From positions 14,142 through 78,141 of the forward strand of contig JADGPZ010000002.1 of NCBI GenBank assembly GCA_017882165.1: a stretch of 64,000 bases of DNA, in the 5' to 3' direction. This document shows, piece by piece, positions 9,461 to 63,445 of this stretch. Origin of the DNA: Candidatus Kapaibacterium sp. GTDB taxonomy: Bacteria > Bacteroidota > Ignavibacteria > Palsa-1295. Within the stretch, counting starts at the first letter, position 1; the number at the start of each line of letters is the position of its first letter. The position numbers and the translations under genes are program-made. The notes below the pieces were generated by a model that was given only the letters and a program-made list of their open reading frames with translations, ran no database searches and was not told the DNA's origin.

Positions 9461-12328
9461 TCAGACCAGTTCTCTCAGGCTTACTTCGAGCTTTTCAATC
9501 TGATCGGCATAGTTCGCTTGCTTCTCCCGCTCCTTCAGCACGACTTGTTCCGGTGCGCGGGAGATAAACCCATCATTGGAGAGCTTGGCGGTTACTTGTT
9601 CAAACTGTGCGCGGACCCTGACGAGCTCCTTGGAAAGCCGTTCGTGTTCTTTCGCTCGTTCTGCCCCCGACATGCTTGGGATTTTCACGAAGACGCGAGC
9701 ATCGCCGCCAACTAATTCGCTCGTGTACTCGCGAGAGGAGTAATCGGTGCCTTCCCGCTCAACAATAAGCTCGCTGGCCCGCGTGAGGCGCTCGATAATA
9801 TGTGAAGTCGATTGCAGTGACCACAAGCCGGCTTCCGTTCGGGCCTGCACGATCACCGCTGCCGTTGCCGATGGCGCGAGATTGAGCGTTGAGCGGACAA
9901 GACGTGCCGCTTCGATCGTCCGCTGCACGAGCGCGAATTCGCGCTCGGCTTCGTCATCGATCTTGTAAGTATCCGGTGTGATGTAATCATCTCGGCCAAG
10001 TAGAGTGTCTTCCGGCGCGCCGGTCAAGGCATGCCAGAGCTCTTCCGTGACGAACGGCATGATCGGGTGCAGTAGCCGGAGGATACCTTCGAGGATTTCG
10101 ACCGCAAGCGGCATGGAATCCGGCTGGAGCTTGACGATCTCCAGATACCAATCGCAGAAATCGCGCCAGACGAAATCATAAAGGATTTTCGTCGCTTCGT
10201 TGATCTCGTAGTTGTCGAACGCCTTCCGAATGTCTCGCGCAGCGCGGTTGGCGCGGCCGATAATCCATTTATCGGCGAGAGATTTCTGCTCCCCCGCCTT
10301 TTCAAGGCGGGGGTTGGGGGGTGGTTGACCCTTCAACCCGGAATAACCACCCCCTGCCCCCGCCTTGAAAAGTCGGGGGTTCTTATCTTCGCTATTGAGG
10401 ACTTCCGTATCCTCACTCTCGAACTCGACGTTGGGTTGCTTGGCCTGGTACTCATCGCGCTTCATCATGACGAAGCGGGTGGCGTTCCAAAGCTTGTTGG
10501 CGAAGTTGCGGCCTATCTCGCAGGAGGCTTCAGCAAAACGGATGTCCTGTCCGAGCGGCGCGAGATAGAGCAGCGAGAAGCGCACCGCGTCCGTGCCATA
10601 TCGCGCGAGCAACTCGAGCAAGTCCGGCGAGTTGCCGAGTGATTTCGACATCTTGCGCCCATCCAAATCGCGCACGATGTTGTGGAAATAGACATCGCGG
10701 AACGGGATGAGGTCCTTCAGCTCCGTTCGCGGCGAGCCATCTTTCATCGGAATGGACGGCATGAATTCGATGCCGGCCATGATCATTCGTGCGACCCAGA
10801 AGAAAACGATCTCGAAGCCGGTCGAAAGCAACGAGGTCGGATAGAACTCGATGAGGTCCGGCGTTGCCTCTGGCCAGCCGAGCGTTGCCATCGGCCAGAG
10901 CCACGAGGAGAACCAGGTGTCGAGTACGTCGGGGTCTTGCACGAGCGCTCCGTTGTACCCTGCGGCAGTTGCGCGCGCGCGCGCTTCCGCTTCGTTGCGT
11001 CCGACGAAGATTTCGCCTGTCTCGGCGTACCATGCCGGAATGCGATGTCCCCACCAGAGTTGTCGCGAGATGCACCAATCGCGGATGTTCGTCATCCAGT
11101 GGTGGTAGGTGCTGACCCATCGCTCGGGATGCAAGCGCACCAGTCCATCGTCGACAACTTTGAGCGCCGGCTCGGCGAGCGGCTTCATACTGACAAACCA
11201 CTGGTCCGAGAGATACGGCTCGACCATCTCGCCACCGCGCTCGGAGTAGCCGACGGAGTGCGTGTAATTCTCGATCTTATCGACAAGTCCAAGGAGTTGA
11301 AGCTCCTCGACAACTCGCTTGCGGGCATCGAAGCGGTCCAATCCGGCGAAGCGTCCGCCGTTCTCGTTGATGACGCCATGCGGGTCCATCACGTTGATCT
11401 GAGGCAGATTATGCCTGAGCCCGATCTCGAAATCATTTGGATCGTGGGCCGGTGTGATTTTCACGCAGCCGGTGCCGAATTCCTTGTCAACGTAAGCATC
11501 CGCGATGATCGGAATCTCCCGCTCCACAAGCGGCAGGATGAGCGTCCGGCCAACGAGATGTTTGTAGCGATCGTCATCCGGGTTGACGGCCACAGCGACA
11601 TCGCCGAGCATCGTCTCGGGGCGAGTTGTCGCAATCGTGAGGTACTCCGGTTCGTCCTTGCTCGTGCCGACGATCGGATACCGGAAATAGTAAAGCTTCC
11701 CTTGGGTCTCTTTGTGAATGACCTCTTCATCCGAGAGCGCGGACTGAGCGAGTGGCGACCAATTGATGATCCGCTTGCCGCGATAAATCAGGCCCTTATC
11801 GTAGAGCCGGACGAATGCCTCGATCACAGCGTCGTAGTATGCCGGGTCCATCGTGAATCGTGTGCGGCGCCAGTCGCACGAACAGCCGAGTGCGCGAAGC
11901 TGATCGAGAATGATCCCGCCGTATTTCTCTCTCCACTCCCAGACGCGCTCGACGAATTTCTCGCGGCCAAGATCGTGGCGGGTCAGACCTTCGGCGCGCA
12001 TCTCGCGCTCGATCTTCGTCTGCGTTGCAATGCCAGCATGGTCGGTGCCCGGCATCCAGAGTGACTCACGGCCCAACATCCGGTTGAGGCGGACGTAGGT
12101 ATCCTGAATGGTATTGTTGAGCGCGTGACCGATGTGCAGGATGCCGGTCACGTTCGGCGGCGGAATGACGACGACGAACGGCGGCTTATCGACCGCGCGG
12201 CGTCCGGTCGGGTCCTGCGGATTCAGCTCCGCGCGGTTGGCATCGAAGAGATGATATTTCTCCCAGCGCTCGTACCACGATTTCTCGATGGAGCCCGGGG
12301 TATATGCTTTTGCTAACGGTTCGGCCAT
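9461..12328 (-). CDS. valS: Valine--tRNA ligase (ValRS)
   Basis: HIGH motif (PNVTGILHIGHALN) and KMSKS motif (KMSKSLGN). Class-I editing domain and C-terminal coiled coil are present. The start was moved to ATG at 12328 (MAEPLAKAYTP...), because the longer ORF extension lacks homology character. Confidence 0.9.
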   Translation of the reverse strand: MAEPLAKAYTPGSIEKSWYERWEKYHLFDANRAELNPQDPTGRRAVDKPPFVVVIPPPNVTGILHIGHALNNTIQDTYVRLNRMLGRESLWMPGTDHAGIATQTKIEREMRAEGLTRHDLGREKFVERVWEWREKYGGIILDQLRALGCSCDWRRTRFTMDPAYYDAVIEAFVRLYDKGLIYRGKRIINWSPLAQSALSDEEVIHKETQGKLYYFRYPIVGTSKDEPEYLTIATTRPETMLGDVAVAVNPDDDRYKHLVGRTLILPLVEREIPIIADAYVDKEFGTGCVKITPAHDPNDFEIGLRHNLPQINVMDPHGVINENGGRFAGLDRFDARKRVVEELQLLGLVDKIENYTHSVGYSERGGEMVEPYLSDQWFVSMKPLAEPALKVVDDGLVRLHPERWVSTYHHWMTNIRDWCISRQLWWGHRIPAWYAETGEIFVGRNEAEARARATAAGYNGALVQDPDVLDTWFSSWLWPMATLGWPEATPDLIEFYPTSLLSTGFEIVFFWVARMIMAGIEFMPSIPMKDGSPRTELKDLIPFRDVYFHNIVRDLDGRKMSKSLGNSPDLLELLARYGTDAVRFSLLYLAPLGQDIRFAEASCEIGRNFANKLWNATRFVMMKRDEYQAKQPNVEFESEDTEVLNSEDKNPRLFKAGAGGGYSGLKGQPPPNPRLEKAGEQKSLADKWIIGRANRAARDIRKAFDNYEINEATKILYDFVWRDFCDWYLEIVKLQPDSMPLAVEILEGILRLLHPIMPFVTEELWHALTGAPEDTLLGRDDYITPDTYKIDDEAEREFALVQRTIEAARLVRSTLNLAPSATAAVIVQARTEAGLWSLQSTSHIIERLTRASELIVEREGTDYSSREYTSELVGGDARVFVKIPSMSGAERAKEHERLSKELVRVRAQFEQVTAKLSNDGFISRAPEQVVLKEREKQANYADQIEKLEVSLRELV
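10291..10379. repeat. Palindromic mini-element (direct repeat - inverted repeat - direct repeat) inserted in-frame inside valS
   Basis: CCCCCGCCTTttcaaGGCGGGGG (10291-10313) and CCCCCGCCTTgaaaagtCGGGGG (10357-10379) flank an inner IR GGGGGGTGGTT...AACCACCCCC. On the coding strand it encodes NPRLFKAGAGGGYSGLKGQPPPNPRLEKAGEQ. The E. coli equivalent region, FVLMNTE...LSLADRWIL, is only a dozen residues long. Confidence 0.6.
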
Positions 12329-12377
12329 AAGAACAGAGAGAACAGCGCGGCGCGTGGAGTATACTCCCGCCGATTTG

Positions 12378-12947
12378 CTACTCCGATTCGGCAGGTGGCG
12401 GCGCCGTTGCGGAAGGCTTTGCGGGCTTGGATCGGTGTAAGGACCACGATTCATCCCGATCGATTTGCCGAAGTTTGAGAAAAGCCGGGTTCCGGTCGAT
12501 GAAATAGTCAACGGGGCGCAAGACAAGGAGGACCAGGAACGCGAGGACGGCAATTGCTGCGGCGCTAAAAACGAAGCCGGTTCCTGCGACAATGCCAATG
12601 CTGGCAGATACGAAGATGGAGGCGGCCGTCGTCAGACCCAGGACGCGGCCACGCTGTTGCAGGATTACACCACCTCCGAGGAAGCCAATTCCCGTCACGA
12701 TTTGCGCGGTAATGCGTCCCGGCTCACCGCCAAATAACGCAGCCGTCTCGAGCGAGATGATTGTGATGACGCAGCAAGCGATTGTGACGAGCAGGCTGGT
12801 CCGCAACCCGGCCGCTTTGCCATAAATCTGATTCTCTGCGCCGATCAGGCCGCCGCCAATGATGGAGGCAGCGATGCGCGGCCAATAGAGATCGGCAAAA
12901 GCCAGAAAATCCTGGAAGGTCTCGTTCGGTTGATGGATCGGCGGCAT
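12378..12947 (-). CDS. mgtC: MgtC/SapB family membrane protein
   Basis: Four or five TM helices with a conserved MgtC core (LETAALFGGEPGRITAQIVTGIGFLGGGVIL). The start ATG overlaps the livF stop (TGATG). Confidence 0.7.
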   Translation of the reverse strand: MPPIHQPNETFQDFLAFADLYWPRIAASIIGGGLIGAENQIYGKAAGLRTSLLVTIACCVITIISLETAALFGGEPGRITAQIVTGIGFLGGGVILQQRGRVLGLTTAASIFVSASIGIVAGTGFVFSAAAIAVLAFLVLLVLRPVDYFIDRNPAFLKLRQIDRDESWSLHRSKPAKPSATAPPPAESE

Positions 12948-22783: not shown

Positions 22784-22952
22784 TTGCGGTTGATTTCGGA
22801 GCCGATCTGTGGTCATTCCACTCCGACTCCAAATGCCTTTTGTTCGGTTTTTGAAGCCCTGCCGATTCGGCGGGGCTTTCTGTTAGCAGTTGCGTTATCA
22901 GTCGCGTGTTCGTTACGGATTGTCTGAACCCGGATAGCTGGCGGTGTACGGA

Positions 22953-22999
22953 CGAATTCCAATTCGCCCGCCCTTCCTGAACCGGCGAATTGGAATTCG
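22953..22999. repeat. Perfect 16-bp inverted repeat CGAATTCCAATTCGCC-n15-GGCGAATTGGAATTCG upstream of a hypothetical gene
   Basis: Seen directly. The arms are exact reverse complements. It lies ~75 bp upstream of the ATG at 23073 and ~170 bp downstream of the preceding gene. Confidence 0.6.
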
Positions 23000-23072
23000 C
23001 CGGTACATGGCCGGTTCGTCGTATATTGTCCATGCTGTAATGGGCACCTATCTAATTACCGGGGAGAAACAC

Positions 23073-23915
23073 ATGGAAAATACCGCAATCACAACCACCC
23101 GTTCCATCCGCGCAAACGACATTTTTGGATTGCCACCGGAGCCGAAGCGGGAGGAATTATGCAAGTATCAGGGCGATTTTGGCGAGCTGCACGGCATCTT
23201 CAGCAACACGATCACGATCGCCTTGAGCCGCGATTTGCAGAAAAACGTGATGCTTGCCAATGCGGTCGCACTGCACCTGGCAATGAAATATCCCGATCGG
23301 AACGTGCTGCTCGTCAATACCTACGCGGGCACCGAGATGATGCAGCGGACGCTGGCCGATGCCGCGTACCGGGAGCTTATCAATTCCGGCAGGAAGGCAC
23401 CGACAACATTTCGAGAGTTTCTTCCGAAAGCCCTCGATGAGTATTTTGACGAACAGAGCACGTTCGAATTTCCGGAAAATCTTCGCGTCCTGAACGCGCC
23501 GACGGGCACGCTTACGGCGGCAAATTTGGCATCGGAAATCGAAGAATGTCATGCCGACACCCTGATTCTGAATTCGTTCGAGTTTTCCGCGTGGTCTATT
23601 TTCCTGAGAGCGCAGTTTGCACAGGGGTTGGTCGGGTTGCAGAAGCGGCTGCAACTGACGGTCGTTGTATTCTCGCATGAGTTGCGGTCGAACGTCGGCA
23701 GTTTTCGCGCAGGACGTGGGCCACTCGGTTTGCTTGCTGCATATGCCTATTCGGTGTGGCACGCTGTATCTTTCGAAGAGACACAACGGCTAAATCGTTC
23801 CGGAAACCGCACTGTTCATGAAAAACAAACTCAAATGCGAAAGCCGAACCAAGAGAGTAGCATCCCTTACGAATGCGATTTTTCGAACGCTGCCGGGATC
23901 GCCTACGAGGAGTAG
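23073..23915 (+). CDS. Hypothetical protein, possible degenerate RecA/KaiC/DnaB-like ATPase fold lacking a Walker A motif
   Basis: A good RBS (GGGGAG) precedes the ATG. Alternating hydrophobic beta-strand / helix pattern with Walker-B-like hhhhNS/DT motifs (LLVNTYAG, LILNSFEF, LTVVVFSHE) but no GxxGxGK[ST]. The fold call is speculative. Confidence 0.45.
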   Translation: MENTAITTTRSIRANDIFGLPPEPKREELCKYQGDFGELHGIFSNTITIALSRDLQKNVMLANAVALHLAMKYPDRNVLLVNTYAGTEMMQRTLADAAYRELINSGRKAPTTFREFLPKALDEYFDEQSTFEFPENLRVLNAPTGTLTAANLASEIEECHADTLILNSFEFSAWSIFLRAQFAQGLVGLQKRLQLTVVVFSHELRSNVGSFRAGRGPLGLLAAYAYSVWHAVSFEETQRLNRSGNRTVHEKQTQMRKPNQESSIPYECDFSNAAGIAYEE

Positions 23916-35467: not shown

Positions 35468-35483
35468 ACATTCTGGTCAACGA

Positions 35484-35557
35484 GGGTGTAGGGTATAGGG
35501 TGTAGGGTATGAATACCCTGCATCCTCTACCCTATACCCTAAACGCTATACCCTATG
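35484..35557. repeat. Nested palindrome built from TAGGGTAT / ATACCCT units spanning the mraY-murD junction and the murD start codon
   Basis: gggtgTAGGGTATAGGGTGTAGGGTATgaATACCCTgcatcctctACCCTATACCCTaaacgctATACCCTATG. The murD ATG (35555) lies inside the 3' arm. Confidence 0.55.
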
Positions 35558-50468: not shown

Positions 50469-50545
50469 GAAGTGCTAAAGTGCTGAAGTGCTAAGATGCT
50501 CGTCTCGCGCTGAACTCAGCACACGAGCACTTTAGCACTTCGGCA
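50469..50545. repeat. Palindromic repeat element, same family as 45849-45943 (GAAGTGCTAAAGTGCT ... AGCACTTTAGCACTTC), between tRNA-Val and pyk
   Basis: 16-bp perfect inverted repeat with a ~40-nt loop. It begins 4 nt upstream of the pyk start codon on the minus strand. Confidence 0.55.
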
Positions 50546-50555
50546 CCTATAAAAG

Positions 50556-62083: not shown

Positions 62084-63358
62084 ATGCCCCAATCCAAATC
62101 TCAAAACGGTCAGCATTCGAACATCCGCCCGGACTTCTGGCTGCTCATGCTGCGCAGCCGGAAGACGTTACTAATGGGTACACTGCTCGGCGGTCTTCTC
62201 CTCTTCGCCTATGCGAAGCTAACGCCGGAAACCTACGAAGCGACCGCAACGGTGCTGCCACCGGAGCGTTCTGGATCTGGTGGGATGCTCGCATTCCTTG
62301 CCAATAGTTCGTCGGCGCTCGATTTCCTGAAAAGTGCCGGTGGTGCCGAGAATCCAGCGCTCGATCTTTTTAAGACGATCATCGACTCGCGAACGATTGC
62401 CGAAGATGTCGCACGCGACTCCGTCGTCCATTCCTTTTTGATGCGAACCGACACCAGTTGGAAGGGGGTGGTCGGGCGCCTGCAAGGGGGTCTTACGAGC
62501 GAAGCGATGCGAACCGGGATGTTCACCGTGAGCGTGAAGCTCAGGACATCACGGCTTCCATCTGCGCGCGAGCGCGATTCCGTCCGAACCATGTCCGCCT
62601 ATATCGCAAACGCGTATGTTGCGGCGCTCGACCGCTACAACCGCGACCGGCTCATGACGAGCGCGCGCTCCACACGCATTTTCATCGAGAGCGAGTATCA
62701 CTTAAAGCTCGCACAGCTCGACAGCTCCTACGCGCGACTTCAATCGTTTCAGGAGGGGCACAAGGCGATCGCACTGCCGGAGCAACTCTCTGCGACCGTC
62801 TCCGCCGCTGCGAAGCTGACGAGCCAGATCCAGCAGACCGAAATGCAAATGGATGTCGAGGAGCACGAACTCGGCGCCTCCTCGCCACGCATGAAGGCGC
62901 TCGCCGCCCAACTCGAAGCGGCAAAAGCAGAGTTGCAGAAATACGACGACGGCGGGGCCGGGGAGTACATCATCGCGCTTCGGAGTGCCCCGGCTCTTTC
63001 TCGCGAACTCGCAGGCTATCTGCGCGAAACAAAAGTGCTCGAACAAGTCACGGGCTTTTTGCGCCAGCAGTTCGAGGAACAGCGGATCAACGAAGAGCGC
63101 GATCTGCCCTCTCTCCAACTGCTCGACCGCGCTCAGCCTCCGACCGCGCCAACGGCTCCGAACACGAAGTTGCTTGCAATGCTGGGTTTGATCCTTGGCC
63201 TGTTCGGTTCAATCGGATATGTCTGGACGCAGTCCTTCCTGCATGATGTGCGCGAGCGCCCGGAGGCACACTACCGGCTCATCAATTTCCTCCGCACCGC
63301 CCGCTACGGCCGACGCGTGAAGCTGATTGAACCAGCCAAGACAACAGAAAATAATTAG
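62084..63358 (+). CDS. Polysaccharide co-polymerase (Wzz/GumC-like chain-length determinant) without kinase domain
   Basis: N-terminal TM and a Wzz-like periplasmic coiled-coil region. C-terminal TM (LLAMLGLILGLFGSIGYVW). It follows the Wza-like gene with a 4-nt gap. Confidence 0.6.
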   Translation: MPQSKSQNGQHSNIRPDFWLLMLRSRKTLLMGTLLGGLLLFAYAKLTPETYEATATVLPPERSGSGGMLAFLANSSSALDFLKSAGGAENPALDLFKTIIDSRTIAEDVARDSVVHSFLMRTDTSWKGVVGRLQGGLTSEAMRTGMFTVSVKLRTSRLPSARERDSVRTMSAYIANAYVAALDRYNRDRLMTSARSTRIFIESEYHLKLAQLDSSYARLQSFQEGHKAIALPEQLSATVSAAAKLTSQIQQTEMQMDVEEHELGASSPRMKALAAQLEAAKAELQKYDDGGAGEYIIALRSAPALSRELAGYLRETKVLEQVTGFLRQQFEEQRINEERDLPSLQLLDRAQPPTAPTAPNTKLLAMLGLILGLFGSIGYVWTQSFLHDVRERPEAHYRLINFLRTARYGRRVKLIEPAKTTENN

Positions 63359-63445
63359 GAATTAGGAATGAGGACTGAGGATGAAGAAGTGTTTTGGATG
63401 TGTCCAGCCATTCCTCAATCCTAATTCCTCATTCCTAATTTTCCG
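63358..63445. repeat. Heptamer-based (GGAATNA)n inverted repeat / terminator-like hairpin downstream of the wzz-like gene
   Basis: GGAATTAGGAATGAGGACTGAGGATGAAG ... CATTCCTCAATCCTAATTCCTCATTCCTAATT. The arms are largely complementary. Confidence 0.4.

Follow-up and report, generated by a model that had tools for sequence, protein, structure and literature searches.

How does a palindrome of about 90 nt come to lie in frame within an essential gene, and what keeps it there? This question is raised by valS, the valyl-tRNA synthetase (ValRS) gene, in a 64,000-nt stretch of DNA from Candidatus Kapaibacterium sp. (contig JADGPZ010000002.1), and this whole stretch is called the window below. An earlier note on the window had interpreted the palindrome as an element similar to a miniature transposable element with inverted repeats (MITE) or to a repetitive extragenic palindrome (REP) that was domesticated into a protein loop. 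Our analysis supported this interpretation overall, with "tolerated" in place of "domesticated". The element is very probably a tolerated, selfish, tail-to-tail doublet of a dispersed non-autonomous repeat family of Kapabacteria (Bacteroidota/Ignavibacteriota group), which resembles REPs and their hairpin-forming doublets (REPINs).

Structure of the element in valS

The valS coding sequence (valine–tRNA ligase) occupies 9461..12328 on the minus strand, stop included, and encodes 955 aa starting with MAEPLAKAY. An 89-nt near-perfect palindrome was confirmed inside it at 10291-10379. Two CCCCCGCCTT..AAGGCGGGGG hairpins make up this palindrome; both have a GGGGGTGGTT tail, and they are inverted relative to each other. 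Hairpin 1 (10291-10313) reads CCCCCGCCTT-TTC-AAGGCGGGGG, hairpin 2 (10357-10379) reads CCCCCGCCTT-GAA-AAGTCGGGGG with one mismatch, and the inner inverted repeat is formed by GGGGGGTGGTT (10316-10326) and AACCACCCCC (10345-10354), as the earlier note had described. Described as repeat units, unit 1 (10291..10326) has the hairpin and then the tail on the plus strand, CCCCCGCCTTTTCAAGGCGGGGG-TTG-GGGGGTGGTT, and its reading on the valS strand encodes QPPPNPRLEKAG. Unit 2 (10345..10379) is the inverted copy, reads CCCCCGACTTTTCAAGGCGGGGG-CA-GGGGGTGGTT on the minus strand with one stem mismatch, and encodes NPRLFKAGAGGGY. The spacer between them (10327..10344), GACCCTTCAACCCGGAAT, forms the loop of the doublet. 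The in-frame inserted element around this palindromic core covers 10289..10381 on the minus strand, that is 93 nt or 31 codons (N650-E680, NPRLFKAGAGGGYSGLKGQPPPNPRLEKAGE), and valS stays open through it; so the frame is preserved as claimed, but the number of added residues is 31 and not about 33.

The whole element is predicted to form a single long hairpin with an RNA minimum free energy (MFE) of -70.9 kcal/mol, while dinucleotide shuffles gave -40.3 ± 3.9 (z = -7.8, and 0 of 200 were as good). The chance expectation of the hairpin pattern in the window was 0.00. The element was stop-free only in the valS frame and one antisense frame, and no second copy of it was found within the 64 kb.

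Other identities for the structure were also considered. A terminator was rejected for the valS copy, with no terminator-like site on the minus (sense) strand at 10289-10381 and no U-run after either hairpin. Rfam 15 gave no family above its gathering score, and only sub-threshold hairpin models of the miRNA-precursor type were seen (28 bits against a cut-off of 70 bits). An integron attC site was rejected on inspection, as the ends misfit RYYYAAC/GTTRRRY, and an intein or intron was rejected because domains of that kind are absent and the insert has only 31 aa.

A dispersed repeat family with in-frame copies in many genes

The family was scanned with the exact 21-mer hairpin in one genome per species, which gives a sample and not a genome-wide count. 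This hairpin was found in more than 112 loci, many of them in Candidatus Kapaibacterium or Ignavibacteriae metagenome-assembled genomes (MAGs), and 78 hairpin-plus-tail units of about 35 nt were counted in 47 loci, mostly from Kapabacteria and Ignavibacteria MAGs. In these loci the hairpin was accompanied by one and the same tail throughout. Each unit is made of the GC hairpin CCCCCGCCTTTTCAAGGCGGGGG, a spacer of 2-7 nt and a GGGGG(T/C)GGTT tail, with the consensus aAaACT-CCCCCGCCTTTTCAAGGCGGGGG-tTG-GGGGGTGGTT; unit 1 of valS agrees with this consensus, which was built from 42 units. So the search for other copies that the earlier note had proposed was positive, and the exact hairpin with its GGGGYGGTT tail occurred in many Kapabacteria/Ignavibacteria loci, both intergenic and intragenic.

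The loop orientation was constant relative to the tail, and GGTTGACCC of the central valS spacer was also seen 3' of the tail in several other copies. Units were arranged as singlets, as tail-to-tail doublets (valS, L012, L070, L088 and L038) or as head-to-head doublets. Intergenic copies usually had an A-run at the far side, and many of them were a hairpin plus T-run, unlike the valS copy, which has no T-run after its hairpins and is therefore read through in both transcription and translation. IMG/VR viral contigs gave no match to the unit.

Of about 55 sampled sites, at least 16 (about 30%) lay deep inside genes confirmed by Pfam or ValRS homology. At 13 of them, Pfam domains lie on either side of the unit or are split by it, and the host genes encode an ADH/GFO oxidoreductase, a BCKDH-type E1 (doublet), UvrD, an MR/MLE enzyme, IleRS, CarB, DXS, an acyl-CoA dehydrogenase, a CCG Fe-S protein (doublet), MutL (in the linker), an Eco57I-type methylase (2 sites) and an asparaginase. 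The remaining 3 sites are the ValRS copies of the window, L113 and L196, assigned by homology. In-frame insertion was found in 13 gene families and at least 5 Kapabacteria genomes, and one MAG, SMAG_U4877, holds 10 of the host genes. The unit has stops in one of its six reading frames, and all five open frames are in use, with the peptides QPPPxPRLEKAGE, NHPxxPALKRRG, PRLFKAGxGGW/Y, PPPFQGGGxGVV and SPAFSRRGxGGG. For annotation this means that PRLEKAGE, PPPFQGGG, SPAFSRRG and NHPxxPALKRRG are repeat signatures and not protein motifs. A synthetic multi-frame peptide query for host proteins returned only 2 matches, probably as a result of composition filtering.

The IleRS copy is a single in-frame unit, NHPLTPALKRRG, at L065 6118-6152 (ileS of Kapaibacterium SMAG_U4877). 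Its position is the IleRS loop that corresponds to the ValRS site by homology, immediately before the DRWI(LS) helix that opens the anticodon-binding domain.

In the acyl-CoA dehydrogenase gene (L079 1473-1600), the in-frame unit is followed by tandem half-hairpin copies RLEKAGEINSRLEKAGEINARLEKAEEINAR, which suggests local amplification of repeat-derived coding sequence within an enzyme domain.

The ValRS loop in relatives

The database protein P0001 is identical to the window ValRS over 955 aa, and it matched PF00133, PF08264 and PF10458 together with hundreds of ValRS homologues. The closest ValRS proteins were 65-79% identical, and the named ones among them belong to Candidatus Kapabacteria. 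The HIGH and KMSKS motifs of the window ValRS are intact. When the loop length was taken as the segment between the conserved anchors NATRFV..K and LADKWI, the window had 76 aa, most Kapabacteria had 60-86 aa, the listed relatives outside Kapabacteria (Ignavibacteriota, Bacteroidota and others) had 35-52 aa, and the Thermus thermophilus ValRS 1GAX had about 2 aa. So the alignment agreed with the earlier note that the loop is enlarged here, and its content was polymorphic among Kapabacteria.

The valS repeat family was found at the orthologous loop in the window, in L113 (whose protein is 79% identical), in L196 and in the fragment P0245, and the element stands 3 codons from LADKW in all four carriers. 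The loops of L194 and L197 hold an unrelated second palindrome (GTCATTGCGAGCGAAGC... and GTCATTGCGAGCGAAGCGAAGCAATC..., peptides VIASEAKQS..LLAMT) with MFEs of -43 and -62, and the L195 loop holds a third type, a hairpin of GGCGAGT heptamers with an MFE of -51. One arm of heptamer repeats is left in the L115 loop, and the L114 and L116 loops have no palindrome (MFE -21). The protein P0241, at roughly 80% identity, is a carrier of family B. In a rough neighbour-joining tree, the carriers of the valS repeat family were not monophyletic but scattered among the other insert types. An exhaustive search with the 31-aa insert gave 4 matches, which included one spurious eukaryotic repeat protein and a fourth ValRS (P0245), and a metagenome scan for valS relatives gave at least 80 loci, with 3 from Kapabacteria among the 80 listed. 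This loop is an insertion hotspot with turnover, a permissive site for palindromes of several families.

In an AlphaFold2 model of ValRS from a 64-sequence alignment (mean predicted local distance difference test score, pLDDT, 85.5; predicted template modelling score 0.78), residues 631-680, insert included, had a block-mean pLDDT of 36-54, and residues 652-680 were below 50. The helices on either side of the loop (600-630 and 684-705) had block means of at least 88, which means that the insert falls in a low-confidence loop between two confident helices, in agreement with the loop position that the earlier note had proposed. Gly and Pro make up 12 of the 31 insert residues. We infer that the insert is probably a tolerated, flexible surface loop.

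Conservation of the unit and its explanation

The four-fold degenerate sites of valS were 45.6% identical (0.456) between the window and L113, so they are essentially saturated. The right-hand unit with its flanks (unit 1, 10291-10326) was identical at 39 of 39 positions between the two and agreed with the family consensus, and the chance of this under neutrality, calculated at 0.46 per site, was about 1e-13; the unit was thus conserved beyond the neutral expectation. The decay of the left-hand unit differed between the lineages of L113 and L196. Protein-level selection cannot explain the 39/39 identity, because the loop is hypervariable in other lineages. Such identity needs recent re-insertion, gene conversion from other copies, or a constraint at the nucleotide level, and its occurrence at saturated sites points to recent insertion or gene conversion rather than to protein-level selection.

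We prefer a tolerated doublet of the dispersed family as the explanation of the valS element. The element would have been inserted, or copied by gene conversion, at the helix-loop-helix junction just before the ValRS anticodon-binding domain. Five of the six frames of the unit are stop-free, and the product would be a Gly/Pro-rich, probably disordered surface loop of 31 residues that the enzyme tolerates. The permissive loop may act as a selection filter, where palindromes of several families accumulate, decay and get replaced. On this explanation the family is presumably mobile, and the insert presumably neutral.

Several points weigh against this explanation. No close relative turned up with an allele in which the site is empty. 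The closest ValRS of full length has 79% identity, so there is no direct view of the insertion event or of its boundaries. Neither a target-site duplication nor a transposition intermediate was seen. The internal branches of the ValRS tree are short, and the constant distance of 3 codons would also agree with a single old insertion that was later lost or replaced elsewhere. The valS doublet is the only copy visible from the source genome, of which the 64-kb window was searched, so the abundance of the family there is deduced from relatives. Low pLDDT also falls short of proof that the insert is surface-exposed or neutral.

A constraint at the nucleotide level would be expected if a single ancient insertion was kept by nucleic-acid selection, with the hairpin acting either in valS mRNA (stability, or a translational pause that allows co-translational folding at the junction of the catalytic and anticodon-binding domains) or in DNA (as a site bound by a nucleoid or gyrase-type protein, as proposed for REPs and bacterial interspersed mosaic elements). 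The identical position relative to LADKW in all four carriers would fit such an event, and so would the exact placement at a domain boundary, the very stable hairpin (-70.9 kcal/mol) and the 39/39 identity at saturated synonymous sites. However, most Kapabacteria valS genes are without the element and have unrelated palindromes or none at the site, its carriers are not monophyletic, and the left unit decays differently in L113 and L196. Copies of the unit are also found in unrelated genes as well as between genes, in either orientation and in all five open frames, which argues against a role specific to valS. We consider an ancient, selected insertion unlikely.

It is even less likely that the peptide itself was domesticated, as the earlier note had suggested, that is, that the 31-residue Gly/Pro-rich loop has a function in ValRS (binding of tRNA or a partner, or regulation). 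In-frame retention in an essential gene of at least four lineages could be read in this way, and the insert of P0245 is identical to that of the window at 27 of 32 positions, against 68% for the rest of the C-terminal part. But this peptide conservation is explained by the identity of the DNA to the repeat-family consensus, and different proteins contain this DNA translated in different frames. Other lineages carry entirely different inserts or none, and the model shows no structure here (pLDDT < 50). The evidence fits a tolerated passenger instead.

It is hardly credible that the palindrome was formed locally by template switching, or that the assembly is a chimera joined at repeats. The element is the sole copy in the 64-kb window, and breaks or mis-joins at repeats are frequent in MAG assemblies, but the reading frame is intact, a protein identical in all 955 aa has been recorded from a contig of 97 kb, independent assemblies (JGI Ga0207664, NCBI DASYAJ and P0245) have the element at the same site, and the unit agrees to the base with a consensus common to dozens of loci.

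Genes next to the units

To characterise the neighbours of the family, 371 ORFs (open reading frames) within 600 nt of units were clustered. Only two recurrent non-syntenic families were found, DUF559 and an uncharacterised one. REP-associated tyrosine transposases (RAYTs), the Y1 HUH transposases whose genes are flanked by REPs, are usually encoded by single-copy genes. No transposase-like ORF recurred beside the units among these 371 ORFs, and no RAYT was seen there.

The DUF559 neighbour (PF04480, E = 4e-26) is a Vsr-fold PD-(D/E)xK endonuclease. Units or doublets stood on both sides of DUF559 ORFs in L003, L004, L012 and L083, and likewise in L202, which was reached through the DUF559 protein and not through the DNA motif. 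In L199, from another lineage, related hairpin-and-tail units surround DUF559; in L200 (Pseudopedobacter saltans) it is surrounded by a different hairpin repeat, and in L198 there is a hairpin upstream only. Among 120 homologues of DUF559, which came from Kapabacteria, Patescibacteria and further groups, about one quarter had termini that are translated units, with peptides such as TTPQPPP, STAPSPRLEKAGEF, PPPFQGGG, TPPQPSPKLGEGE and similar ones. In L012 4281-5237 (OY969726.1, a Kapabacteria chromosome), an 867-nt block with DUF559 and five units lies between copies of a 90-nt direct duplication that contains dnaK codons 1-24, the 5' end of the gene. Since the duplication brackets the block, this is a discrete insertion, and it looks as if either the target duplication was unusually long or the element brought along a substitute start for the gene.

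The uncharacterised family has about 200-300 aa and 7 members in 7 loci (L014 1361-2257, L016 3547-4155, L019 619-2097, L021 6216-7103, L028 1-558, L054 3229-4116 and L058 4739-5446), always with a head-to-head doublet 20-250 nt upstream and in otherwise unrelated contexts. Its conserved motifs are NSWEWA, VxIYSQ and GGLGKL. It had no Pfam or PHROG match, and NCBIfam gave one far-sub-threshold match only. An upstream motif, TTGATATTTTGAAAAYGG, was common to three of these loci (L019, L021 and L058).

The link of DUF559 to the units is one of adjacency only, and adjacency does not imply mobilisation. It is possible, although we put this forward tentatively from the analysis of these neighbourhoods, that the units are the cognate DNA of DUF559, in a nuclease-repeat partnership that would be found in Kapabacteria, Patescibacteria, Bacteroidota and perhaps further phyla. 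DUF559 would then nick the hairpins or home into them and so cause their spread and homogenisation, including in coding loops such as that of valS, and it would be the putative enzyme responsible. To our knowledge, DUF559 is no known transposase, and this speaks against such a role. The units also stand upstream of the uncharacterised family in 7 loci, so the adjacency may instead reflect small selfish genes that target hairpins. We found nothing relevant in the literature that links DUF559 to palindromic repeats, nor anything on repeats of Kapabacteria. If true, the partnership would be widespread, undescribed and an analogue of the RAYT-REPIN system with a different enzyme class. The hairpins that bracket DUF559 genes give a clue, open to testing, as to what this large protein family does.

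Comparison with known systems

REPs are GC-rich imperfect palindromes of 20-40 nt with an unpaired conserved motif at one end, and they occur as singlets and inverted doublets (PMC3733652, PMC3116915). The units described here are likewise short palindromes in many copies (78 units in 47 loci of related genomes), and the inverted valS units with their spacer fold into one long hairpin, as in REPINs (Bertels and Rainey 2011, PMC3116915). So the REP part of the earlier "MITE/REP-like" label stood, as a REP-doublet architecture. But the consensus has neither the GTAG nor the CGTC tag, and the unpaired motif in Kapabacteria is GGGGG(T/C)GGTT; without a tag, the valS unit falls outside the GTAG/CGTC REP super-families. 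Three further differences from REPs were seen: about 30% of the sites in the exact-21-mer sample were intragenic, so the units are not predominantly extragenic; the unit-flanked gene is a DUF559 Vsr-like endonuclease with its flanking units in direct orientation; and the hosts belong to Kapabacteria. Intragenic REP dimers, encoding 20-30 aa, had already been reported by Di Nocera et al. (2013) in DNA-repair and tRNA synthetase genes, with uvrA and dnaE among the host genes, and were read by them as neutral inserts in loops or linkers (PMC3733652). What we describe is thus a new family and a new host lineage of a known kind of element, which had been published for tRNA synthetases too.

Rickettsia palindromic elements (RPEs) are translated in frame in many unrelated housekeeping genes at fold-compatible sites, and they are reported to have about 150 bp and a conserved peptide in a preferred frame (PMC10969869). 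The Kapabacteria repeat is also a palindrome in frame in many unrelated genes, but the resemblance is functional only: here the unit has 35 nt or the doublet about 90 nt, five frames are used, the sequence is presumably unrelated, and the lineage is free-living without a reduced genome. The free-living Kapabacteria would be a third well-documented setting of selfish palindromes in essential proteins, after Rickettsia RPEs and the REPs of proteobacteria and Opitutus. The ValRS loop and the homologous IleRS loop make a natural experiment, colonised by at least three unrelated palindrome families, which suggests that class Ia synthetases have a permissive site here and that repeat turnover can lengthen protein loops.

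Like MITEs (Coxiella QMITE, Correia and ERIC; PMC10969869, PMC5896051), the element is small and non-autonomous with inverted ends, and these are also occasionally found as intragenic in-frame fusions. Unlike them, the whole valS element is a hairpin and not two terminal inverted repeats around a core, nor was a parent insertion sequence that encodes a DDE transposase detected. The flanks of the window copy, L113, L088, L012 and L070 showed no consistent direct repeat, and the palindrome continues there as an A-run or T-run. As neither a target-site duplication nor a parent insertion sequence was seen, the MITE half of the earlier label is too specific. Among selfish nuclease genes with a Vsr fold, homing endonucleases of the I-Bth0305I family (PMC3239194, PMC2677866) are similar in that the L012 cassette forms a discrete insertion of 867 nt, either beside dnaK or within it, but the DUF559 proteins here are free-standing, outside introns or inteins, and are linked to the units by adjacency.

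Other repeats and reading frames

In the Verrucomicrobiota MAG CAZAYP, a repeat of about 150 nt in dozens of copies has an identical CCCCGCCTTGAAAAGGCGGGG hairpin beside AACCGCCCC (L009-L011, L015, L032, L036, L041-L043, L046, L093, L095, L101, L107 and L109). The same hairpin module was seen in composite elements of gamma- and betaproteobacterial, Patescibacteria and cyanobacterial MAGs, and so it is common to several phyla.

The window itself has three long intergenic hairpins of tandem heptamers just beyond gene ends at 63353-63440, 50469-50546 and 35483-35555, with MFEs of -39 to -51 kcal/mol and the heptamers AATTAGG/AATGAGG, AAGTGCT and GGGTGTA/GGGTATA together with their complements. 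They share the architecture of the L195 valS insert with its GGCGAGT heptamers, and these genomes may thus have a second class of repeats. A 73-nt palindrome with GGCGAATTGGAATTCGCC arms (-51 kcal/mol) lies at 22940-23012, at the start of ORF 22944-23915.

The listed valS ORF extends upstream to 12598, but the real coding sequence is 9461-12328, and the TTG-extended N-terminus (12329-12598) is most likely spurious. Long ORFs antisense to valS, for example 10682-12064 on the plus strand, reach up to 460 aa and are most likely spurious shadows of valS.

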